This document shows, piece after piece, positions 3,976-64,000 of a stretch of 64,000 nt of DNA. The notes under the pieces were generated by a model. The model ran no database searches and had not been told where the DNA came from. It worked only from the letters and a program-made list of their open reading frames with translations. The DNA comes from Gammaproteobacteria bacterium (GTDB lineage: Bacteria; Pseudomonadota; Gammaproteobacteria; Steroidobacterales; Steroidobacteraceae). The DNA is taken from positions 5,862-69,861 of the forward strand of contig VGVB01000008.1 of the NCBI GenBank assembly GCA_016882265.1, written 5' to 3'. The position numbers and the translations under genes were made by a program. Numbering within the stretch: the stretch's first letter is position 1; each line of letters begins with the position of its first letter.

Positions 3976-5460
3976 ATGGGCAAGCCCACCGGCTTCATCG
4001 AATTCCTGCGCGAAGTGCCGGTCGATCGCGCGCCGCGAGAGCGCATCCGCGACTGGGACGAGTTCCACCTCGAGCTCGAGGAGCGCCGGCTGCGCCAGCA
4101 GGGCGCGCGCTGCATGGACTGCGGCACGCCGTTCTGCCACACCGGACTGCTGCTGAACGGCGCGGCTTCCGGCTGCCCGATCAACAACCTGATCCCGGAA
4201 TGGAACGATCTCGTCTACCGCGGCCTGTGGCATGAGGCGCTCACGCGCCTGCACCGCACCAACAACTTCCCCGAGTTCACCGGCCGGGTCTGCCCGGCAC
4301 CGTGCGAGGGCTCCTGCGTGCTCGGCCTGCACGCGCCGGCGGTGACGATCAAGAACATCGAGTGCAGCATCGTCGAGCGCGGCTGGGAGGAGGGCTGGAT
4401 CCTGCCCGAGCCGCCGGTGGCGCGCACCGGCAAGAAGGTCGTCGTGATCGGTTCCGGTCCCGCGGGACTGGCCGCGGCTGCGCAGCTCAACCGTGCCGGG
4501 CACCTGGTCACTGTGCTCGAGCGCGCCGAGCGGCCGGGCGGCCTGCTGATGTACGGCATCCCGAACATGAAGCTCGACAAGCACGAGGTCGTCGCGCGGC
4601 GCCTGCGCCTGCTGGAGGCCGAGGGCGTCAAGTTCATCTGCAACGCCAACGTCGGCGAGAACGTCGAGGCGCAGTTGCTGCTGACGGACTTCGACGCGAC
4701 GGTGATCTGTACCGGCGCGACGCGCCCGCGGGATCTGCCGGTCGAGGGGCGCGGACTCAGTGACGTGCTGTTCGCCATGGACTACCTGACCGCGGCGACC
4801 CGCGCGGTGCTGGCCGGCACGCCGGACGAGACGCCGCTGCACGCCCGCGGCCGCGACGTCGTCGTGATCGGTGGCGGTGACACCGGCACCGACTGCGTCG
4901 CCACTGCGCTGCGCCAGGGCTGCCGCTCGCTGCTGCAGTTCGAGATCCTGCCGCGACCGCCGGCCGAGCGGGGCGCCGACAACCCATGGCCGGAATGGCC
5001 GCGGATCCAGCGCAGCGACTACGGCCACGAAGAAGCGGCGGCACGTTTCGGCAGCGATCCGCGCGTGTACCAGACCACGGTGCAGCGCTTCAACGGTGAC
5101 GCCGACGGCAACGTGCGCGAAGTCGTCACCGTCGAAGTCGACTGGGCGCGCGACGCCGAGGGCCGCTGGCAGTCGCGCGAGCGAGCCGGCAGCGAACGTG
5201 TGCGACCGGCGCAGATCGTACTGCTGGCGCTCGGTTTCCTCGGCCCGGAAGCGGGGCTGCTGCGCGACTTCGGCGTCACCACCGATGCGCGCGGCAACGT
5301 GCAGGCCGGCCACGGCAGTTACGCCACCAACGTGAAGGGCGTGTTCGCCGCCGGCGACTGCCGCCGCGGCCAGAGCCTGGTGGTCTGGGCGATCCACGAG
5401 GGCCGCGGCGTCGCCCGCGAGGTGGATCGTTACCTGATGGGCAGCACCGATCTGCCGTAG
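3976..5460 (+). CDS. gltD: glutamate synthase small subunit (NADPH-dependent oxidoreductase)
   Basis: 494 aa. Fe-S Cys motifs '[10 protein letters not shown]' and 'CPAPCEGSC'. Two dinucleotide-binding folds, '[14 protein letters not shown]' and '[13 protein letters not shown]'. Immediately follows gltB. Confidence 0.95.
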
Positions 5461-5513: not shown

Positions 5514-6371
5514 TCAGCAGTCCGCACTCGGCGGAAATTCCCGGTACTGCGGGAGGTCGTCGGCGATGTCGAACCACGGCGCCTTCGAGCCGACGAAGAT
5601 GTGCAGTTGCGGGCGCAGGCCGGGATCGTCATCCAGCGAGCCCATCGGAATGCCGACCGGGCCGGCGGCGGGGCGCGGCAGCGAGGAGCCGCAGTCGACG
5701 CAGAACGCGTAACTGAAACGCGGCGCTTCCGGCAGCGTGAATGTCTGCAGCCGATCGGCGCCCCGCGTGTAGGTCACGGCCGCAAAGAGATAGGAGCCAT
5801 GCGCCGCCGAGCGGGCCCGGCGGCAGCGACTGCAGTGGCAATTGACACTTCGCTGCGGCGCGGCGGCGAGGCGATACGCGACTGCCCCGCACAAACAACT
5901 TCCGCGCGGCGTACCCGGCGGGTCCGACGATCGGCACTCCGGAAGAGACGGCGCCGCAATGCCCGGCGGATAGCAGTCGAAGCGCGGCAGACGATCGGGG
6001 ATCTCGTACCACGGGGCTTTCGAAGCGGTGAAGATATGCGCCAGCGGACGAATGCCGGGGTCCTCGGTGAAGTTCCCGGCTGGCACGAAGACCTGACCGT
6101 CGACGGGGTCGCCGGGCACCACCGAACCGCAGTGCCGGCAGAAACAGCGGTATGCACCAGGCGCTGATTCCCAGCGGGCCCGGTGAGTCGTGCCGGACAG
6201 GCGGAAGTTCGCCACCCGGCCGGCCAGATAGGTCGCAAAGGCCGACCCATGTGCCTTGCGGCACCGCGAGCAATGGCAATGCACCATCGACTCGAACGGC
6301 CCGTCGAGTTCCCAGGCGACGGCTCCGCACAGGCACTGCGCACTCGCCATGTCAGTCTCCGGTCTCCACAA
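5514..6371 (-). CDS. GFA-family (glutathione-dependent formaldehyde-activating / CENP-V-like) zinc protein with two tandem GFA domains
   Basis: Two internal copies of the GFA Cys pattern: 'CLCGAVAWEL...HCHCSRCRKAHGSAF...CRHCGS' and 'CLCGAVAYRL...NCHCSRCRRARSAAHGS...CVDCGS'. The start could be 6371 or the Met at 6350. Confidence 0.8.
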   Translation of the reverse strand: MWRPETDMASAQCLCGAVAWELDGPFESMVHCHCSRCRKAHGSAFATYLAGRVANFRLSGTTHRARWESAPGAYRCFCRHCGSVVPGDPVDGQVFVPAGNFTEDPGIRPLAHIFTASKAPWYEIPDRLPRFDCYPPGIAAPSLPECRSSDPPGTPRGSCLCGAVAYRLAAAPQRSVNCHCSRCRRARSAAHGSYLFAAVTYTRGADRLQTFTLPEAPRFSYAFCVDCGSSLPRPAAGPVGIPMGSLDDDPGLRPQLHIFVGSKAPWFDIADDLPQYREFPPSADC

Positions 6372-6449
6372 CGGACTCTACGTGGCTGCGACCGTGCTCT
6401 CAACGAGATCCGGCGGAGCGACTGCGCCGGCGCCCGGGTGGCGGCACGC

Positions 6450-23920: not shown

Positions 23921-23949
23921 TTGACGGCCACCCCGCCGCGGCCGATACT
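23921..23949 (+). promoter_or_regulatory. sigma70-like promoter candidate, TTGACG-N17-GATACT, for icmF
   Basis: TTGACG at 23921-23926 and GATACT at 23944-23949, with a 17-nt spacer. It ends 20 nt upstream of the ATG at 23969. The track's ORF start at 23921 is the TTG of the -35 box. Confidence 0.4.
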
Positions 23950-23968
23950 GCTCGCAGTTATCTTACTC

Positions 23969-26900
23969 ATGGGTAACATCGTGGGTCAACCGGTCCGGCG
24001 GGCGATCGGCGCTGGTGCGGCGACGGTGACCGCGGCGGACCGGCGCGGGCCGCTGCGCTTCGTCAGCGCGGCCTCGCTGTTCGACGGCCACGATGCCGCG
24101 ATCAACGTCATCCGTCGCGTGCTGCAGGCGCACGGCGCCGAGGTCGTGCACCTCGGCCACAACCGCAGCGTGGCCGAACTGGTCGACGCCGCGATCCAGG
24201 AAGATGCCGACGCGATCGCGATCAGCAGCTACCAGGGCGGGCACAACGAGTACTTCCGCTACCTGGTCACGCAGCTTCGCGAGCGCGGCGCCGGGCACGT
24301 GCAGGTAGTCGCTGGCGGCGGCGGCACGATCGCGCCGGACGAGATCGCCGCGCTCGAAGCGGCCGGCGTGGCGAAGATCTACACGCCGGACGACGGCCTG
24401 AAGCTCGGCCTCGACGGCATGATCGAGGACGTGCTGCAGCGCGTCGGCGCGGTGCTGCGGCCGGCGTTCGCCGGCGACCGGGTCACGGTGGACGATCCGG
24501 TGGGGCTGGCCCGCGCGATCACGGCGCTCGAACTGGACCGCGACGGCCCGGCGGGAGCCCGCGTCCGCGCGCTCGCCGCCAGCGCTGCGACGCGGCCACC
24601 GGTGCTCGGCATCACCGGCACCGGCGGGGCGGGCAAGTCGACGCTGACCGACGAGCTGCTGGCGCGGCTGCTGCGCTGCTTCCCGGAGAGTCGTTTCGCG
24701 GTACTGGCCATGGATCCGACCCGGCGTCGCACCGGCGGTGCGCTGCTCGGCGACCGCATCCGCATGAATACGCTGGCCGGCGGTCGCGTGTTCATGCGCT
24801 CGCTGGCCACGCGGCGCCAGCATCTCGCGACCAGCGCGGTACTCGCCGACGCCGTGCGCCTGACCCAGGCGGCCGGTTTCGATCTGGTGATCGTTGAGAC
24901 CGCCGGCATCGGCCAGAGCGACAGCGAGATCATCGATCGGGTCGACCTGTCGCTGTACGTGATGACCCCGGAGTACGGCGCCGCTACCCAGCTCGAGAAG
25001 ATCGACATGCTGGACTTCGCCGATTTCATCGCGCTGAACAAGTTCGAGCGGCGCGGCGCCGAGGATGCGTTGCGCGACGTGCGCCGGCAGGTGGCGCGCA
25101 ATCGCGGGCGCACCGGTGAGCCAGCCGAGCGGCTGCCGGTCTATCCGACGATCGCGAGCCAGTTCAATGACGCCGGCGTCAACGCCCTGTGTGCGGCATT
25201 GTGTGCGCGGCTCGACGCCGGCTGGGGCAGGCTGCGGTCGTGGCAGCCGGTGGATCTGGCGCCGCTCGGCCCGCCGCGTCGCGAGCCGATCGTGCCGGCG
25301 GAGCGCGGTAACTACCTGGCCGAGATTGCCGCCGGCGGGCGGGCCGCGCGCGAGCGCGCCGGGCAGGCCGCTGCCGCGGCCGCTCGCGCGCATGGTCTGT
25401 ACCGCGCGCTGGCGACACTCGCGGACCCGGCGCTGCCCGCGCCTCTGGAATCTCATGCCGCGGCTGCGGCCGTAGTAGCCGACGGCACGCTCACCCGGCT
25501 GCGCCAGGAGTACGACGCGGCGCTGGCCGCGATCGGCGCCGAGGGCCTCGCGCTGCTGCGTGCCTGGCCGGAGCGCGCGCGCGCGGCGACGGCCGAGCGC
25601 TACCAGTACGAAGTCCGCGGCCAGCCGATGCAGGGTGACAACTACACGGCCACGCTGGCCGGACTGCGCCTGCCGAAGATCGCGGTACCGCGGCTGCAGG
25701 ACTGGGGCGAGCAGCTCGCCTTCCTGCTGGCCGAGAATCTGCCGGGCTCATTTCCGTACACCGCCGGTATCTATCCGTACCGGCGTGAGGACGAGGATCC
25801 GACGCGCATGTTCGCCGGCGAGGGCATGCCGGAGCGGACCAACCGGCGCTTCCATTACCTCGCGCGCGGGCATCGCTCGGTGCGCCTGTCGACCGCGTTC
25901 GACTCGGTGACGTTGTACGGCGAGGATCCGGACGAGCGCCCCGACATCTACGGGCGGATCGGCAACTCCGGCGTGTCGATCGCGACGCTCGACGACCTGA
26001 AGCGCCTGTACTCCGGCTTCGACCTGTGCGCGCCGTCGACCTCGGTGTCGATGACGATCAACGGGCCGGCGCCGATGATCCTGGCGATGTTCCTGAACAC
26101 CGCGATCGATCAGCAGGTCGAGCGCTGGCTGCGGGAGCAGGGGCGCTGGGCGGCCGCGGAGGCCGCGCTGCGGCAGCGTTGCGCCGGCCGCGAACGGCCG
26201 GTCTATCGCGGCGAGCTGCCCGCCGGACATGACGGCAGCGGCCTCGGCCTGCTCGGCGCCAGCGGCGCCGACATCGTCGACCGGGAGACCTATGAGCGCA
26301 TCCGTGCGGACGCGCTGGCCCGCGTCCGCGGCACCGTGCAGGCCGACATCCTGAAGGAAGACCAGGCGCAGAACACCTGCATCTTCTCCACCGAGTTCGC
26401 GCTGCGGCTGATGGGCGACGTGCAGCAGCACTTCATCGACCAGCGGGTGCGCAACTTCTACTCGGTGTCGATCTCCGGCTATCACATCGCCGAGGCCGGC
26501 GCGAACCCGATCACGCAGCTCGCGTTCACGCTGGCCAACGGCTTTACGATCGTCGAGTACTACCTCGCCCGCGGCATGGCGATCGACGACTTCGCGCCCA
26601 ACCTGTCGTTCTTCTTCTCGAATGGCATGGATGCGGAATACGCGGTGATCGGGCGCGTCGCCCGGCGCATCTGGGCGCGCGCGCTGCGCGAGCGCTACGG
26701 CGCCGGCCCGCGCAGCCAGATGCTCAAGTACCACATCCAGACCTCGGGCCGCTCGCTGCATGCCCGCGAGATCCAGTTCAACGACATCCGCACGACGCTG
26801 CAGGCGCTGTATGCGCTGTTCGACGGCTGCAACAGTCTGCACACCAATGCCTACGACGAGGCGCTGACGACGCCGACCGAGGCCAGCGTGCGCCGCGCGG

Positions 26901-27430
26901 TCGCGATCCAGCTCATCATCGCGCGCGAGCTGGGCCTGAACTTCAACCAGAACCCGTGGCAGGGCTCGTTCGTGGTCGGCGAGCTGACCGACCTCGTTGA
27001 GGAAGCGGTGTGGAGCGAGTTCGAGCGCCTGGCGGCGCGCGGCGGCGTGCTCGGCGCGATGGAGACGATGTACCAGCGCGGCCGGATCCAGGAAGAATCG
27101 CTGACTTGGGAACGGAAGAAGCACGATGGCAGCCTGCCGCTCATCGGCGTCAACACCTTCCTGCCGGAGCGCCCGGATGCGGACGAGAACCGCGTGGCCG
27201 AGCTGATCCGCTCGACCGGGGAGGAGCGGCAGGCGCAGGTGGCCGGCGTGCGCGCCTTCGATGCCGCCGACCCGGCGCGCCAGCAGGCGGCGCTGGCGCG
27301 GCTGCAGCAGGTCGCCGCCGCGGGCGGGAACCTGTTTGCCGAACTGCTGGACACCGTGCGCTACGCCTCGCTCGGGCGCATCACCCGGGCCCTGTACGAG
27401 GTCGGCGGCCAGTACCGCCGCGGGATGTAA
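23969..27430 (+). CDS. icmF: fused isobutyryl-CoA mutase IcmF (B12-binding domain + MeaB-like GTPase + mutase catalytic domain)
   Basis: N-terminal B12 motif 'FDGHDAAINV'. Central G-protein P-loop 'GITGTGGAGKSTL'. C-terminal methylmalonyl-CoA-mutase-like barrel ('AGIYPYRRE...FAGEG', 'TNAYDEALTTPT'). The start is ATG 23969 (preferred) or TTG 23921. Confidence 0.92.
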   Translation: MGNIVGQPVRRAIGAGAATVTAADRRGPLRFVSAASLFDGHDAAINVIRRVLQAHGAEVVHLGHNRSVAELVDAAIQEDADAIAISSYQGGHNEYFRYLVTQLRERGAGHVQVVAGGGGTIAPDEIAALEAAGVAKIYTPDDGLKLGLDGMIEDVLQRVGAVLRPAFAGDRVTVDDPVGLARAITALELDRDGPAGARVRALAASAATRPPVLGITGTGGAGKSTLTDELLARLLRCFPESRFAVLAMDPTRRRTGGALLGDRIRMNTLAGGRVFMRSLATRRQHLATSAVLADAVRLTQAAGFDLVIVETAGIGQSDSEIIDRVDLSLYVMTPEYGAATQLEKIDMLDFADFIALNKFERRGAEDALRDVRRQVARNRGRTGEPAERLPVYPTIASQFNDAGVNALCAALCARLDAGWGRLRSWQPVDLAPLGPPRREPIVPAERGNYLAEIAAGGRAARERAGQAAAAAARAHGLYRALATLADPALPAPLESHAAAAAVVADGTLTRLRQEYDAALAAIGAEGLALLRAWPERARAATAERYQYEVRGQPMQGDNYTATLAGLRLPKIAVPRLQDWGEQLAFLLAENLPGSFPYTAGIYPYRREDEDPTRMFAGEGMPERTNRRFHYLARGHRSVRLSTAFDSVTLYGEDPDERPDIYGRIGNSGVSIATLDDLKRLYSGFDLCAPSTSVSMTINGPAPMILAMFLNTAIDQQVERWLREQGRWAAAEAALRQRCAGRERPVYRGELPAGHDGSGLGLLGASGADIVDRETYERIRADALARVRGTVQADILKEDQAQNTCIFSTEFALRLMGDVQQHFIDQRVRNFYSVSISGYHIAEAGANPITQLAFTLANGFTIVEYYLARGMAIDDFAPNLSFFFSNGMDAEYAVIGRVARRIWARALRERYGAGPRSQMLKYHIQTSGRSLHAREIQFNDIRTTLQALYALFDGCNSLHTNAYDEALTTPTEASVRRAVAIQLIIARELGLNFNQNPWQGSFVVGELTDLVEEAVWSEFERLAARGGVLGAMETMYQRGRIQEESLTWERKKHDGSLPLIGVNTFLPERPDADENRVAELIRSTGEERQAQVAGVRAFDAADPARQQAALARLQQVAAAGGNLFAELLDTVRYASLGRITRALYEVGGQYRRGM

Positions 27431-46815: not shown

Positions 46816-47976
46816 ATGCGCATCACGAGACAGACGGGCCTGTTGCTGCTGTGTGCAGTCCTCGCGGCCTGCGGCAAGGGCAAGGAGAAGGATATCGATC
46901 CGCCGGCCGAGCTGGTCGGGTTCAGCGCGCGCATCGACGTCGCGCGCGCCTGGAGCGGCGGCGGCGGTGGTGGCGAAGAAGTGCTGCGCCTCGGCCTGCG
47001 CCCGGCGGTCGCGGATGGGGTCGCCTATGTCGCGGGCTACGGCGGCGCGATCGAGGCGTTCGATCTCGCCACCGGCCGCGCGAAGTGGCGCTACTCGGGC
47101 AAGCTGCCGTTCGGCGGCGGGCCCGGGATCGGCGAAGGCCTGGTCGCGGCCGGCTCCGTCGCGGGCGACGTCGTGGCGCTCGAGGCCGCGACCGGCAGCC
47201 AGCGCTGGCGGGTGACGGTCGGCGGCGAAGTGCTGTCCGCGCCGGCGATCGGCGGCGGGCTGGTCGTGGTGCGGACGGTGGACGGGCGAGTCCGCGGACT
47301 GCGTGCGGCCGACGGCAGCGAGGCCTGGAACTACGAACAGCCGGTGCCGCGCCTGACCCTGCGTGGCAGCGGCGGGCCGGTGATCCACGGCGACCTCGTG
47401 CTGACCGGCTTCGACAACGGCCGCGTGGCCGCGCTGGCGCTGGCGAGCGGCGACCTGCTGTGGACCGCGACGGTCGCTCCGGCCAAAGGTCGCACCGAGA
47501 TCGAACGGCTGGTGGATATCGATTCGACCGTCGCCGTCGTCGGTGAGGACGTGTTCGTCGTCGGCTTCCAGGGCCGGGTCGCGATGCTCGCGCTGGAGTC
47601 CGGCCAGATCTGGTGGGCGCGCGAACTCTCGAGCCATCGCGGACTGGCCGCGGACGAGGACAAGCTGTACGTGACGCTCGCCGACAGCACGGTCGTCGCG
47701 CTGCGGCGCCGCGACGGCACCGAGGTCTGGCGCCAGGCGCAGTTCCTGAACCGGGCGCTGTCCGCGCCGGCGGTGAATGGCGAGCTGCTCGCGGTCGGCG
47801 ACTTCGAGGGCCACGTGCACTGGCTCGACACGGCGACCGGCGCGGTGGTCGGCCGCGCCAAAGCCGGCGGCAGCCGGATCAGTAACCGCCCGGTGGCGGC
47901 CGGGGATCTGTGGCTGGTGCAGTCCGACTCCGGCGCCGCCCACGCACTGCGTACGCGACCCCGCGCCAGCGGGTGA
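46816..47976 (+). CDS. bamB: outer-membrane protein assembly factor BamB
   Basis: 386 aa. Lipobox '[10 protein letters not shown]'. Repeated PQQ-like beta-propeller blades. Confidence 0.9.
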
Positions 47977-47998
47977 TCTGCGCCCGCTGGTCGCCCCG

Positions 47999-49387
47999 AT
48001 GCTGCCCGTTATCGCGCTCGTGGGGCGGCCGAACGTCGGCAAGTCCACGCTGTTCAACGCGCTGACCGGGACCCGCGACGCGCTGGTCGCGGACGAGCCC
48101 GGCCTGACCCGCGACCGCCAGTACGGTTTTGGCCAGTCGGGCGAGGCGCGCTTCATCGTCGTTGATACCGGCGGTCTGGTCGAGTCACCGCGCGGCGTCG
48201 AGGAGCCAATGGCGCGGCAGACGCTGCGCGCGGTCGAGGAAGCGGATCGGGTCGTGCTGCTGGTGGACGGCCAGCAGGGTCTCGTCAGTGCCGACCGCTT
48301 CGTGGCCGAGGTGTTGCGCCGCAGCGGCCGGCCGGTGACGGTCGCGGTCAACAAGAGCGAGGACCGCGATCCGGTGCTCGCGGTGGCCGAGTTCCACGCG
48401 CTCGGGCTCGGCGAGCCACTCGCGCTCTCGGCCGCGCACCGCCGCGGGGTCGCGGATCTGCTCGAACGGGTGCTGGCGGGCTGGGAGTTTCCGGCCACCG
48501 CGCCCGCGCCGCAGGCCACGGACGCGATCCGGGTCTGCGTGGTCGGCCGGCCCAACGTCGGCAAGAGCACGCTGATCAACCGGTTGCTCGGCGAGGATCG
48601 CCTCGTCGCCTTCGACGAGCCCGGCACGACGCGCGACACCGTCGCGGTGCCATTCGAGCGCGACGGCCAGGCCTACGTGCTGATCGACACCGCCGGCGTG
48701 CGGCGCCGGGCCAGGGTCGAAGAGGGGGTCGAGCGGTTCAGCGTGATCAGGACGCTGCAGGCGATTGACGGTGCGCACGTCGTCATCGGCGTGCTGGACG
48801 CGCGCGACTCGGTCGCCGAGCAGGACGCGACGCTGCTCGGCCTGGTCGCCGAGCGCGGCCGGGCGCTCGCGATCGCGGTCAACAAGTGGGACCACGTCGC
48901 GGCCGAGCAGCGCGATCGGATCCGCGAGCAGCTGGCCGAGCGCCTGCGTTTTCTCGACTTCGCGCCGCTACACTTCATCTCGGCGCTGCACGGCAGCGGC
49001 GTCGGCGAACTGATGGATTCGGTGCGCCGGGCCTATGCGGCGGCGATGCGCGAACTGCCGACCCCGGAGCTGACCCGCGTCCTCGAGGCGGCGATCAGCC
49101 GGCACCAGCCGCCGCTGCTGCGCGGGCGCCGCATCCGCCTGCGCTATGCGCACCAGGGCGGGCGCAATCCGCCGCTCATTGTCGTGCACGGCGCGCAGGC
49201 CGAGCGCACGCCGGAGGACTACCGGCGCTATCTGATGCACTGCTTCCGCGAGGCTTTCCGCCTGGCCGGCACGCCGGTGCGGATCGAGTTCCGCACCGAG
49301 GGCAACCCCTACGCCGGGCGGCGCAACGTGCTGACGCCGCGGCAGCGGCGGCGGCGCGAGCGGGTGCAGCGGCACTCGCGGCGTTGA
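47999..49387 (+). CDS. der: ribosome biogenesis GTPase Der (EngA)
   Basis: Met75 of ORF 47777..49387. Two G domains, '[12 protein letters not shown]' and '[12 protein letters not shown]'. Basic KH-like C-terminus. Confidence 0.95.
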
Positions 49388-49503
49388 CCGGCCCGGCACC
49401 GGCGGATTCCTCGCTGAACCCGGCAGATTTGCACACCATCCGCCACATGCTGAACCGGTAGCTTGGCTCCCGCGGCAGGAGGTCCTGCCCGGGAGGCCTG
49501 TTC

Positions 49504-51618
<2,115 letters not shown>

Positions 51619-51621
51619 GCG

Positions 51622-52995
51622 ATGCAGATCCGCTGCATCCAGGACTGGTTGACGCGGCGCCGGGCGCAACGGGCCGCGGACCGTCGCGACGAGCTCGCCT
51701 TCCTGCCGGCCGCGCTCGAACTGCGGGACACTCCGCCAGCGCCCGCCGGCCGGGCCGTGCTGTGGACGATCGCCGGCCTTTGTGTATCCGCGGTCGCCTG
51801 GGCCAGCGCGGGGCGGGTCGATATCGTCGCCGTCGCGCCCGGACGTTTGCTGCCCGCCGGTCATGTCCGGACGGTCCAGTCGCCCGGCAGCGGAACCGTA
51901 CGCGCGATCCACGTCCGTGATGGCCAGCAGGTAGTGCAGGGCCAGGTCCTGATCGAGCTCGACCCGGCGCTGGCGGAGGCCGACCGGACCGCCAGCGAGG
52001 TCCGCCTGCAGGGTATGGAGTTCGAGCTGGCCCGCCAGCGCGCCTTCCTCCACTGGCTCGGGGCCGCCTCCGCGGAGCCCGGGTCGCGGCTCGGCGTGCG
52101 CGAGCTGCCGGCGCTGCAGCGCGCAATCCTCGAACAGTCCGCTGCGGAGTATCAGAGCCGGCGGGCGGCAAACCGGCAGGCCATGCTCCGGCGTGAGGCC
52201 GACCGCGAGGCGACGCGACGCCAGGTCGGCAAGCTGGAGCGGACCTTGCCGCTGGTGGCGCGGCGGACCGCAGCGGTCCGCGAGCTGGCCGAGCGCGACC
52301 TGCTGCCGCGGCTGCAGCATGTCGAGCTCGAGCAGCAGCGCATTGCAGTGGAAGAGGACCTCGCGGCCGCGCGCGCCGGGCTGGCCTCGATCGAGGCCGC
52401 GATCGCCGAGCTGACCAGTCAGCGACGCGAGCTCGAATCCGGCACGCGGCGCACGACACTGCAGCGGATCGCGGAACTCGAGCAGCTCGTGGCAGAAGCC
52501 TGGCAGCAGCAGTTCAGGACCGCGCGGCTGGTTGCACAACAGGCGCTGGTGGCACCGGTCGGAGGCGAAGTGCAGCAGCTTGCCGTACACACGATCGGCG
52601 CCGTCGTCGGGCCCGGACAGCCGCTGCTGGTCATCGTCCCGGCGGGCGAACCACTCGAGGTGGAGGCCCGGATCCTCAACCGCGACATCGGTTTCGTCCG
52701 CGAAGGTCAGGCGGCCGGCATCAAGGTCGAGGCGTTTCCATTCACCCGTTACGGAATCCTCCCGGGGCAGATCGTCGCGATCAGCGAAGACGCGACTCCG
52801 GACGAGCAACTCGGTCCGGTGTATGTCGCCCGGGTCCGGCCGCAACGCGCGGTGCTGGAAGCCGAGGGCCGGCCGGTCGCGCTGACGTCCGGAATGGCCG
52901 TCAGCGTGGAAATCCTGACCGGCCGCCGCAGTCTGCTCGACTACGTGCTGTCGCTGTTGTCACGGCACCTGCAAGAAAGCGTACGCGAGCGCTGA
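51622..52995 (+). CDS. HlyD-family type I secretion periplasmic adaptor
   Basis: 457 aa. 'FLPAALELRDTPPAP', a single TM, long coiled-coil, C-terminal 'LLDYVLSLL'-type tail. Confidence 0.92.
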   Translation: MQIRCIQDWLTRRRAQRAADRRDELAFLPAALELRDTPPAPAGRAVLWTIAGLCVSAVAWASAGRVDIVAVAPGRLLPAGHVRTVQSPGSGTVRAIHVRDGQQVVQGQVLIELDPALAEADRTASEVRLQGMEFELARQRAFLHWLGAASAEPGSRLGVRELPALQRAILEQSAAEYQSRRAANRQAMLRREADREATRRQVGKLERTLPLVARRTAAVRELAERDLLPRLQHVELEQQRIAVEEDLAAARAGLASIEAAIAELTSQRRELESGTRRTTLQRIAELEQLVAEAWQQQFRTARLVAQQALVAPVGGEVQQLAVHTIGAVVGPGQPLLVIVPAGEPLEVEARILNRDIGFVREGQAAGIKVEAFPFTRYGILPGQIVAISEDATPDEQLGPVYVARVRPQRAVLEAEGRPVALTSGMAVSVEILTGRRSLLDYVLSLLSRHLQESVRER

Positions 52996-53030
52996 GCATC
53001 GGCATCGATGGCCAATCGGGGAGAGAGCCC

Positions 53031-53492
53031 ATGTTGCGCAGTCTGAATGTGTTCGTTGCGATCCTGGTCACGGCTGGAACCGTCACCGTACTGGCCTGCG
53101 GCACGCTGCTGACCCTGCTGTTCACGCGGCTGTCGCAGATATGGCCCGTACTGGCACTGGGTTCCCTGTCCGCCGGGTACTACGTCGCTGGCATCGTCGG
53201 CCTCGCCGTTCCGACCTGGATATGGTGGCGGCATGGGCTGATTCCGCCGGCGGTGCTGCCCGGCTGTGAGAAGCGGCTGCGGCGCGGCGAACGGATGCTG
53301 GCCGTGGCGAATGTCGTATTCCTGGTGAGCTTCGTCGGACCGTTCGTGGCGTCCGCCATCATGAAGAACCCGCTGCTCCCCTGGCTGGCGATCTACGGCT
53401 TCCTCGCGCTGCCGCTGTGCGTGGTGGCCTGGTGTCTCGGCCTGCACTACATCAGTTCTTCACGCGATCGCTCGAGGGCCTGGCGACGCTGA
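53031..53492 (+). CDS. hypothetical small integral membrane protein (about 4 TM helices)
   Basis: 153 aa. GGGGAGAG SD 5 nt upstream of the ATG. Four hydrophobic segments (about aa 5-31, 37-60, 85-107 and 112-137). No recognisable family motif. The region looks less GC-rich than its flanks. Confidence 0.65.
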   Translation: MLRSLNVFVAILVTAGTVTVLACGTLLTLLFTRLSQIWPVLALGSLSAGYYVAGIVGLAVPTWIWWRHGLIPPAVLPGCEKRLRRGERMLAVANVVFLVSFVGPFVASAIMKNPLLPWLAIYGFLALPLCVVAWCLGLHYISSSRDRSRAWRR

Positions 53493-53544
53493 TCGCCGCT
53501 CACGGTGGCCATGAAGGCCGCCAGCAACCGCTACGGAGGGTGTC

Positions 53545-54300
53545 ATGGTCACGAACGAAGAATATGCAGCGATGTCGGCGGCTGTGTACGGCGCCGCACC
53601 GGGCAACCGTCTGGTCGTCGAGGGCTGGACCGCCGACGAGGTCGGGTTGCCGCCCTGGCTGTTCCTCGGTTTCAAGTACGGAATCTATACGCGGGGCACC
53701 GGCAGCGAACGCGAGATCGTGATCGCCTACGCCGGCACGGATCGCGGCTTCAATCCGGACCTGCTGTCGGGCTTCTTCGGCGTCAGCGGTCAGCCTCTGC
53801 CATCGCAGTTGACTCAGGCCGCGGTCGTTTACGCAATGGTGCGCCGGGACTTCCCCGGTGTACCGGCCGAAAACATCTCGTTTACCGGCCACTCGCTCGG
53901 CGGCGGGCTGGCCTCGGTGATGGCGGTGTGGTTCGACCACCCGGCGACCGTGTTCGCGCCCGCGCCGTTCGAGTACTCGGCCCAGGGCAGTGCCGCGGAG
54001 TGGACCGCCGATCTGGCGCGATTCGCGCTGCTGATCACACCCGGGCTGCAGAATGCGGACGACCTGCTGGTCTTCGATCCGGACCGCGATTTCGCAGCGC
54101 GCGAAGCCAACGTGACCAGCTTATCGATCACGGGTGAAGTGCTCGAGCGATTCCTGAGCTGGCTGCCGACGATCGAAGGCACGGCTCATGAAATCGATCT
54201 CGGCGACAGCCCGCTCAGTCCGTTCCAGCGACATGGTATCGACCTGCACGCGGCAACGATCATGGACGAGGACTTCCGCCGGGCGCTGGCCGGACTGCCG
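53545..54300 (+). other. lipase (class 3 / family I.3-like) alpha/beta-hydrolase domain of the RTX protein (approximate bounds)
   Basis: 'EIVIAYAGTD' strand followed by the nucleophile elbow 'GHSLGG'. The candidate catalytic His lies in 'QRHGIDLH' (His230 codon at 54232-54234). The acid residue is not assignable by eye. Confidence 0.6.
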
Positions 54301-63763: not shown

Positions 63764-63845
63764 GCGGGCTGGGGACTGGGACACTCGCTCGCTCGCGCGG
63801 CCAGAACTTACGCGCTCGCTCGCGCCGCCCCAGCCCCCAGCCCGC
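63764..63845. repeat. imperfect inverted repeat enclosing two 12-nt direct repeats, in the xseA-guaB intergenic region
   Basis: GCGGGCTGGGGACTGGG (63764-63780) pairs with CCCAGCCCCCAGCCCGC (63828-63845) with one mismatch. GCTCGCTCGCGC is repeated at 63787-63798 and 63814-63825. Confidence 0.6.
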
Positions 63846-63933
63846 TGCGATGCCAAGGGACCGCGAGCGACTGCTGCCGGCTCCCCGTCCCGGTGGCGAG
63901 TGCCGCGATGCCGCCCGGAACACCGGCACCCGG

Positions 63934-63939
63934 TATAAT
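63934..63939 (+). promoter_or_regulatory. perfect TATAAT -10 hexamer 5 nt upstream of the guaB ATG (possible leaderless transcript)
   Basis: cggTATAATgccgcATG. There is no SD between the hexamer and the ATG, and no good -35 by eye. Confidence 0.35.
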
Positions 63940-63944
63940 GCCGC

Positions 63945-64000
63945 ATGCGCATAGCCCAGGAAGCACTGACCTTCGATGACGTCCTGCTGGTGCCCGCGTA
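63945..64000 (+). CDS. guaB: IMP dehydrogenase, 3'-truncated by the window edge (first 18 codons only)
   Basis: Translates to MRIAQEALTFDDVLLVPA, the canonical GuaB N-terminus. Divergent from xseA, as in enterobacteria. Confidence 0.85.
   Translation, partial: MRIAQEALTFDDVLLVPA

Follow-up and report, generated by a model that had tools for sequence, protein, structure and literature searches.

A rare four-helix membrane protein encoded between hlyD and a lipase-headed giant RTX gene as a candidate immunity-type partner of the lipase head

Introduction

What does a small membrane protein do when its gene is placed between the adaptor gene of a type I secretion system (T1SS) and the giant RTX gene that encodes the presumed substrate? 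This question is raised by a 64,000-nucleotide (nt) stretch of DNA from a Gammaproteobacteria bacterium of the Steroidobacteraceae (contig VGVB01000008.1), which as a whole is hereafter called the window. The open reading frame (ORF) concerned encodes 153 amino acids (aa), and lies 35 nt after hlyD and 52 nt before the RTX gene in the same orientation. A first-pass annotation, made from the sequence, had described its product as an orphan protein with four transmembrane (TM) helices, hereafter the 4-TM protein, and had proposed that it confers immunity to a putative lipase toxin or, alternatively, serves as a T1SS accessory component. By combining an exhaustive family search, a survey of genomic contexts and a reverse survey starting from the lipase head of the RTX protein, we arrive at a leading, though still tentative, reading that the 4-TM protein is an immunity-type partner of the lipase head, most likely protecting the producer.

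Results

The 153-aa ORF is a genuine, selected gene

In DNA of 71% GC content, an ORF of 153 codons is by itself weak evidence of a gene, as many spurious overlapping ORFs are present. The proposal that the ORF arose by chance and is no gene draws on the many overlapping ORFs of like length in the window, which include an antisense ORF of 168 aa (52941-53447). That antisense ORF was rejected as non-coding, since its third-codon-position GC content (GC3) is 0.66 and stops interrupt it in the ortholog of the 153-aa ORF. The 153-aa ORF itself, however, shows a GC content by codon position of 0.63/0.51/0.83, in this frame only, which resembles that of the RTX gene and of hlyD. Its ortholog, P0002, is 78% identical and was found in eight Logan contigs (L001-L008), which, where long enough, display the order hlyD-ORF-RTX followed by a convergent gene that overlaps the RTX 3′ end. 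Mismatches between the two genes are distributed over the three codon positions as 25/11/42, and dN/dS is 0.124/0.407 = 0.31, compared with 0.18 for hlyD. Together with the 22 homolog clusters with conserved motifs and the confident structural model described below, these data refute a chance origin, to which we attach practically no credence.

The coordinates, length, orientation and flanking gaps of the ORF were confirmed from the sequence, and so was its Shine-Dalgarno-like sequence: GGGGAGAG has a GGAG core 7 nt before the ATG, and the ortholog carries GGGGAGA at the matching position. As the N-terminus MxRSLNV is common to remote homologs, the start codon can be regarded as fixed. A lower GC content than that of the neighbours, also noted in the first-pass annotation, holds in number (ORF 65.4%, hlyD and hlyB 71.5-71.6%, window as a whole 70.9%), but it is not specific to the ORF, because the dip (63-68% over about 52750-54400) is shared by the hlyD 3′ end and the RTX head.

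The gene product belongs to a rare, unnamed family with its conserved face in the cytoplasm

Four hydrophobic segments were found in the ORF product (about residues 5-31, 39-62, 89-111 and 117-139), and an AlphaFold2 model based on a 16-sequence alignment consists of four long helices (2-37, 39-68, 80-111 and 116-143; pLDDT 87.6, pTM 0.72), which bears out the predicted four TM helices. The reported lack of a recognisable family motif was likewise reproduced, as no match was obtained in Pfam or PADLOC, and the only NCBIfam match, NF040674 (MrtP; E = 0.005), was a chance one that reached 16.3 bits where the cut-off is 250. A Foldseek comparison of the model with the PDB gave nothing significant (best E = 1, TM-score ≤ 0.35). 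Word-indexed protein searches recovered just three and six family members, and a metagenome scan with a three-sequence alignment re-found L053 only; an exhaustive phmmer search over 1.84 billion cluster representatives was needed to show the family, and yielded 22 proteins (clusters) related to the ORF product at E<1e-3, most of them 120-175 aa long. The family is thus rare and unnamed, and stands outside Pfam, NCBIfam, PADLOC and the PDB.

Family motifs comprise xxRxLNV at the N-terminus, WWRxGLxP where helix 2 ends, RExRxRxGxR where helix 3 begins and GLxxVxSS where helix 4 ends. Conservation is highest (0.57) in loop 2, where W65, L70 and G86 are invariant and G69, P72 and R82 near-invariant, and no catalytic-looking invariant residues were found in the family alignment. 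Because lysine and arginine (K+R) are concentrated in loop 2 and in the C-terminal tail (family means of 6.75 and 2.2, respectively, versus <0.6 in each of loops 1 and 3), the protein has both termini in the cytoplasm (N-in/C-in) and its conserved face is cytoplasmic; hydropathy, the AlphaFold2 helices and the K+R distribution all agree on this topology. Two relatives agree with it as well: P0009 has a cytoplasmic-type zinc ribbon ahead of its N-terminus, and in P0012, a fusion with the 183L family described below, a fifth TM helix takes the 183L domain outward. The periplasmic loops are 5-6 residues long and variable, and there is no cleavable signal.

Two candidate identities were rejected. 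An intramembrane protease of the CPBP/Abi immunity type does not fit, since NF040674 stays below its cut-off and the family alignment lacks conserved Glu-Glu or His motifs. HlyC/CyaC, encoded by the small gene that is classically part of RTX operons, is a soluble cytoplasmic acyltransferase of about 170 aa, and its gene resembles the ORF in being a small gene beside the toxin gene in an RTX/T1SS operon; the ORF product, however, has no acyltransferase match in Pfam or NCBIfam and has four TM helices rather than being soluble. Set aside as well was P0003 (L059:73-546), in which residues 1-63 of a 4-TM ortholog run in frame into a LuxR/GerE-type helix-turn-helix; it comes from a 903-bp metagenome contig and is probably an assembly chimera, and could alternatively be a recombination junction.

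The 4-TM gene recurs straight after hlyD and upstream of lipase heads

The genomic contexts of ten family members were examined (P0008, P0011, P0014, P0015, P0017 and P0019-P0023 were outside this sample, and L060 was too short to judge), and seven of them proved to be T1SS/lipase-RTX loci or remnants thereof. The window and L001 (P0002) have the order hlyD-4TM-head, and L057 (P0006, 33% identical to the ORF product) has hlyD-4TM followed by an RTX gene with a head. Longer arrangements include hlyB(C39)-hlyD-4TM-183L-head, with a lipobox in 183L, in L061-L063 (P0007, 28%), and hlyB-hlyD-4TM-183L-124-aa TM protein-183L-RTX in L013-L015 (P0013, 31%), where the RTX protein is of 3359 aa and has a PF26363 head. 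L009/L010 (P0005, 35%) show the hlyD C-terminus followed by 4TM-183L; L052/L053 (P0004, 39%) have 4TM-183L and a 151-aa head fragment with no hlyD upstream; and L054-L056 (P0012) contain, next to a gene for a BrnT toxin, a 183L gene, a 46-aa hlyD remnant and a 4TM::183L fusion. In independent loci, remote members sharing 28-39% identity are thus encoded straight after hlyD and ahead of homologous lipase heads, and the gene often abuts or nearly abuts hlyD (stop/start at 4095/4096 in L061 and 111/112 in L009). The survey of homologous T1SS loci proposed in the first-pass annotation therefore supports a link to the lipase-headed RTX gene, as the family recurs at L057, L061, L013, L009/L010 and L052; it is missing from the head loci of the reference scan described below.

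Candidates for orphan or displaced 4-TM cassettes were limited to L052 and the degenerate L054-L056, all of which are short contigs. In the latter (L054:8358-10169, also L055 and L056), the fusion P0012 is 334 aa long, the hlyD remnant corresponds to the hlyD C-terminus, and no T1SS is within reach. The 124-aa protein of L013 (L013:5448-5822; L014:5361-5648), lying between two 183L genes, is hydrophobic with several TM segments and has no Pfam match; possibly, the cassettes are associated with membrane proteins of a third type, which it would represent.

The remaining three contexts (L011, L012 and L016/L017, with P0009, P0018 and P0016, respectively), which belong to a distant family branch, have no T1SS, head or 183L nearby. 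In L011:440-4440, P0009 is found amid small secreted or membrane proteins without a Pfam match and a DUF4279 protein, an island-like cluster of small orphan genes. The unrelated neighbourhoods of this branch, and the family's lack of catalytic-looking invariant residues and of a known fold, would suit a conserved membrane protein of general role that is unrelated to toxin or T1SS and merely occupies a variable intergenic slot. Such an explanation would, however, have to account for seven independent T1SS/lipase contexts that share this position at 28-39% protein identity, and for a fusion to 183L, which is hard to do by chance alone; we regard it as very unlikely.

The 4-TM gene diverges with the lipase head rather than with the secretion genes

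The giant RTX protein is composed of a lipase head, He_PIG immunoglobulin-like domains and a region with 28 RTX repeat matches. Its head is an N-terminal alpha/beta-hydrolase bearing FTGHSLGGGLAS, and orthologs carry a precomputed PF26363 Phospholipase-like match; when the head was compared with PDB sequences, nothing was returned. Because the GHSLGGG motif and all other near-invariant columns are kept (38/38), the window head looks catalytically competent. In a neighbour-joining tree, the heads of the window, L001, L057 and L052 form one clade, with the L013 head elsewhere, and by pairwise identity the L061 head groups with the window clade (45% to the window, 56% to L057 and 59% to L052, versus 34% to L013).

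To compare divergence along the locus, the window was aligned with L057. Identity was 76% over the C-terminal 140 aa of HlyD, dropped to 33% in the 4-TM protein, and was about 50% in the head; within the RTX protein it was 46-59% over aa 1-600 and mostly 66-84% beyond aa 600. This defines a divergence trough (window 53031-55344) that holds the 4-TM gene and the first ~600 RTX residues between conserved flanks. Against the closer L001, the 4-TM protein is again the least conserved (78%, versus 86% for HlyD and 81% for RTX). The GC dip over the same stretch suggests cassette exchange by recombination. Further, L054-L056 retain an hlyD remnant and L052 has the cassette without hlyD, which suggests that the hlyD 3′ end serves as one homology arm when the cassette moves.

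By this comparison, the ORF is linked with the variable lipase-head module and not with the conserved secretion machinery. As is characteristic of the toxin/immunity cassettes of polymorphic toxin systems, the small gene is adjacent to and co-oriented with the toxin domain, and variability is greater in this domain and its partner than in the components for delivery and secretion. An immunity-type role is favoured over that of a T1SS structural component because the 4-TM protein, which with the head diverges fastest in the locus, does so much faster than the secretion genes.

The alternative raised in the first-pass annotation, that of a T1SS accessory which docks on HlyB/HlyD and tunes secretion, holds the head at the translocon or retains the RTX protein on the cell, without a protective function, has to be weighed at this point. 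It accords with the gene order, as the 4-TM gene is the first gene after hlyD in every T1SS-linked case, often abutting it, and is accompanied by the 46-aa hlyD remnant even in L054-L056; it also accords with the conserved face of the protein being cytoplasmic, as are the C39-like domain of HlyB and the N-terminus of HlyD. Yet the 33% identity of the 4-TM protein versus 76% for HlyD implies no co-evolution with the machinery, the gene is absent from 34 homologous T1SS/head loci, and its fusion partner is 183L and not a T1SS component. Moreover, L052 has 4TM-183L-head without hlyD, and L011, L012 and L016 are without any T1SS. We thus consider the accessory role, although weakened rather than removed by these data, unlikely, and less likely than an immunity-type role.

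In most relatives the slot ahead of the head is filled by a second small family, 183L

When reference genomes were scanned with an alignment of three heads, 34 loci were obtained, mostly from Betaproteobacteria (Polaromonas, Undibacterium, Chitiniphilus, and metagenome-assembled genomes assigned to Rhodocyclaceae and Burkholderiales) and some from Hyphomicrobiaceae, with none of the heads more than about 40% identical to that of the window over the full head. No 4-TM family member was found in any of the 34, even at E<50. A gene of about 190-280 aa, termed 183L, precedes virtually every proteobacterial head homolog. Each head gene of these proteobacteria is preceded by a small gene that ends -10 to +100 bp before it. 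The 34 loci have 183L in this pre-head slot; the window, L001 and L057 have the 4-TM gene there, at a distance of 52 nt (window) or 49-53 nt (L001 and L057).

The 183L proteins are characterised by a signal anchor or lipobox, a periplasmic domain, a W.EEVQL.DG motif and conserved Cys residues, and the AlphaFold model is beta-rich (pLDDT 80.7). They are labelled "hypothetical protein" by every source, have no match in Pfam, NCBIfam or PADLOC, and gave nothing significant in a Foldseek comparison with the PDB (best E = 0.014, TM-score about 0.2). The two small families are not related by profile comparison (hhalign probability 0.3%), and no reading frame of the window (all six searched), L001 or L057 encodes 183L. 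Side by side, 4-TM and 183L occur in L013, L009/L010, L052/L053 and L061, and fused once (P0012).

Several full 183L-head-RTX genes stand in a row in L021:9390-21053 and L029:3991-11242, and tandem arrays of 183L plus a head fragment of 76-145 aa were found in L049:9129-12606, L050:3894-6049 and L040:8005-12604. Such a pattern is typical of polymorphic toxin systems, although mirrored, with the variable toxin domain N-terminal and the secretion signal C-terminal; the tandem arrays are in this respect the mirror image of the orphan toxin/immunity arrays of contact-dependent inhibition (CDI) and Rhs systems. Further ORFs, each of 157 aa, were called in three of the head loci, after hlyD (L019:2973-3446), after hlyB (L032:3273-3746) and further upstream of 183L (L030:7506-7979); the L032 copy has one RTX repeat match.

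Because L052 and L061, inside the head clade, carry both small genes, the older order was likely hlyD-4TM-183L-head, and 183L was likely lost in the branch of the window, L001 and L057. The same loci lend themselves to another explanation, in which the 4-TM protein is a membrane partner of 183L (anchor, stabiliser or signalling component) and, in the window lineage, a leftover of reduced or changed function after the loss of 183L. This agrees with the adjacency of the two genes in L013, L009/L010, L052/L053 and L061, with the P0012 fusion, and with the loss of 183L in the window, L001 and L057 that the presence of both genes in L052 and L061 suggests. It is countered by the purifying selection on the 4-TM gene in the window/L001 pair (dN/dS 0.31) and by the intact 4-TM protein of L057 (33% identity, 163 bits to the family hidden Markov model), in both cases without 183L, and most 183L genes occur without any 4-TM gene; we judge it quite unlikely.

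The T1SS/RTX block of the window

The window is chromosomal proteobacterial DNA, with the gene order gltBD, secDF and rlmN-hisS-yfgM-bamB-der, followed by the T1SS block and the convergent xseA (Table 1). The RTX gene overlaps xseA by 38 nt at its 3′ end (62279-62316), and in L001 a convergent gene, presumably the counterpart of xseA, occupies the corresponding position and overlaps the RTX gene by 38 nt as well. A scan of 49200-54000 found no promoter-like or terminator-like site in the hlyD-RTX interval, and the single terminator-like match in the scanned region (49991-50007) is inside hlyB and within chance expectation. No TolC-type outer-membrane gene was seen adjoining the hlyB-hlyD-ORF-RTX block, and the Cys-Gly catalytic motif was not found in the N-terminus of the window HlyB. 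Elsewhere in the window, positions 23921-27430 encode a 1169-aa fusion of a B12-binding domain, a MeaB GTPase and a methylmalonyl-CoA-mutase type domain (IcmF-like), which is ordinary and unrelated to the 4-TM ORF.

Table 1. Coordinates of the T1SS/RTX block in the window, with examples of 183L genes from other loci
Feature	Position	Strand	Evidence or remark
der (EngA), left housekeeping border of the T1SS/RTX block	47777..49387	+	TIGR03594, E 2.5e-162
hlyB-type T1SS ABC transporter, C39-like N-terminal domain	49504..51618	+	TIGR01846, 989 bits; Pfam Peptidase_C39, ABC_membrane, ABC_tran
hlyD-type T1SS periplasmic adaptor	51622..52995	+	TIGR01843, E 8.5e-104
Shine-Dalgarno-like GGGGAGAG	53018..53025	+	read from sequence; GGAG core 7 nt before the ATG of the ORF
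4-TM ORF, 153 aa, ATG start, rare unnamed inner-membrane family	53031..53492	+	GC3, dN/dS, 22 related clusters, AlphaFold2
Cytoplasmic loop 2 of the 4-TM protein, aa 63-88, WIWWRHGLIPP...EKRLRRGER	53217..53294	+	best-conserved family segment
Lipase/phospholipase-like RTX head, aa 1-350, GHSLGGG nucleophile elbow	53545..54594	+	Pfam Lipase_3, E 5e-5
Giant RTX gene, 2923 aa, presumed T1SS substrate	53545..62316	+	Pfam HemolysinCabind 2.2e-123, He_PIG 2.2e-44, HCBP_related
xseA, right housekeeping border, convergent with the RTX gene	62279..63952	-	Pfam Exonuc_VII_L, 1.2e-102
183L examples	L028:9357-9956; L024:9361-9954; L013:4819-5370 and 5882-6427; L061:4576-5193		seen across L018-L050

Discussion

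Comparison with known immunity systems

In an attempt to place the 4-TM protein among known self-protection systems, we compared it with several classes, bearing in mind that neither it nor 183L resembles anything in Pfam or the PDB by sequence or fold. Immunity proteins against A-type pore-forming colicins, such as Cai, have about 150-180 aa, four TM helices, both termini in the cytoplasm and very short loops on the periplasmic side; their site of action is the inner membrane, where they recognise the membrane-inserted helices of the toxin. The 4-TM protein is of similar size and shares the four helices, the N-in/C-in topology and the very short periplasmic loops. In contrast to the Cai type, however, it has no Pfam match to the colicin immunity families and no PDB fold match (best E = 1), and the head of the neighbouring toxin is a GHSLG alpha/beta-hydrolase, whereas the toxins countered by Cai-type proteins are pore-formers.

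A further comparison concerns the Tli proteins, the periplasmic immunity proteins of the Tle phospholipase effectors of type VI secretion systems (T6SS), effectors whose adjacent immunity genes were mentioned in the first-pass annotation. The likeness to the window lies in a small gene beside a lipase toxin gene, and 183L, with its signal anchor or lipobox and its periplasmic domain, is like Tli in location. The 4-TM protein is unlike Tli, being an integral membrane protein that has neither a periplasmic domain nor a cleavable signal or lipobox, and delivery in the window is by a T1SS rather than a T6SS. A Tli-like neutralisation in the periplasm does not fit because the conserved 4-TM residues face the cytoplasm.

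For T1SS-linked immunity, a precedent is found in Caulobacter crescentus, where the cdzABCDI operon of a T1SS bacteriocin encodes CdzI, an immunity protein of the inner membrane that is small and has three predicted TM segments (PMC5380434). CdzI and the 4-TM protein are both small, polytopic inner-membrane proteins with no homologs of known function, and in both operons an ABC transporter, a HlyD-type adaptor and a secreted toxin are encoded together with the small membrane protein. The two differ in that CdzI protects against small glycine-zipper pore-forming peptides and follows the toxin genes, while the 4-TM protein has four TM segments, precedes the toxin gene and stands beside a 2923-aa RTX protein with a lipase head; the likeness is one of gene context and membrane location only. 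Finally, the rhizobial RTX bacteriocins to which the first-pass annotation referred do exist: RzcA and its relatives are very large, T1SS-exported proteins that inhibit related bacteria, by a mechanism that remains to be characterised according to the review (PMC3034196). They provide a precedent, by description, for an antibacterial giant RTX protein, and the review describes no lipase head or 4-TM partner (PMC3034196).

A possible mode of action and what weighs against it

The 4-TM gene is probably transcribed and translated just before the toxin in a hlyBD-ORF-RTX operon, and its product is probably placed in the inner membrane with both termini in the cytoplasm. In an immunity-type role, the conserved cytoplasmic loop (WWRxGLxP...RExRxRxGxR) and the helices could hold or block the folded head on the cytoplasmic side during export of the ~2900-residue chain, which is threaded out with its C-terminus first; alternatively, the protein might shield the membrane against the lipase. 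A periplasmic arm of protection would in relatives be provided by 183L, and the window lineage would rely on the 4-TM arm alone.

Several points weigh against this reading. As all 34 head loci of the reference scan are without a 4-TM gene, the protein is not generally required. The residues conserved in it lie on the cytoplasmic side, and the periplasmic loops, of only 5-6 residues, are variable, unlike known lipase immunity proteins, which are periplasmic; the members in L011, L012 and L016/L017 have no T1SS, head or 183L nearby; and the constant position straight after hlyD in T1SS-linked cases would equally fit a secretion-linked role. Besides, the RTX lipase may not target bacteria, and the fast divergence could be explained by weak constraint on a small membrane protein. 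The immunity proposal as first put forward is thus supported in part: it gains from the recurrence upstream of lipase heads and the divergence together with the head, and is qualified by the use of 183L by the 34 head loci, the cytoplasmic conserved face and the three members without a T1SS, and a protective role is what we infer on balance.

Implications for T1SS-delivered toxins

The arrangement of the cassettes points to a broader proposal, which we consider rather doubtful at present, of a class of T1SS-delivered polymorphic lipase toxins with an exchangeable N-terminal domain, guarded by upstream immunity cassettes of two new protein families, 183L and 4-TM, in which the 4-TM protein would act at the membrane or, before export, at its cytoplasmic face and would suffice alone in the window lineage. 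CDI and Rhs toxins place their toxin domains in the mirror image of this N-terminal exchangeable domain. Our literature searches turned up no account of giant RTX genes that combine a lipase head with partner cassettes upstream, nor of either small-protein family, and the reports of T1SS antagonism that were found concern small bacteriocins such as Cdz. If the proposed role is true, the 4-TM proteins would be a new immunity family against a lipase toxin, working in the inner membrane or at its cytoplasmic face and not in the periplasm, and giant T1SS RTX proteins with N-terminal lipase heads would be interbacterial weapons with exchangeable toxin/immunity cassettes. It would also raise the question of how a producer copes with an N-terminal enzyme domain that exits last and waits beside the inner membrane, and the lineages of the window, L001 and L057, being without 183L, would offer a natural setting in which to study the 4-TM protein alone.

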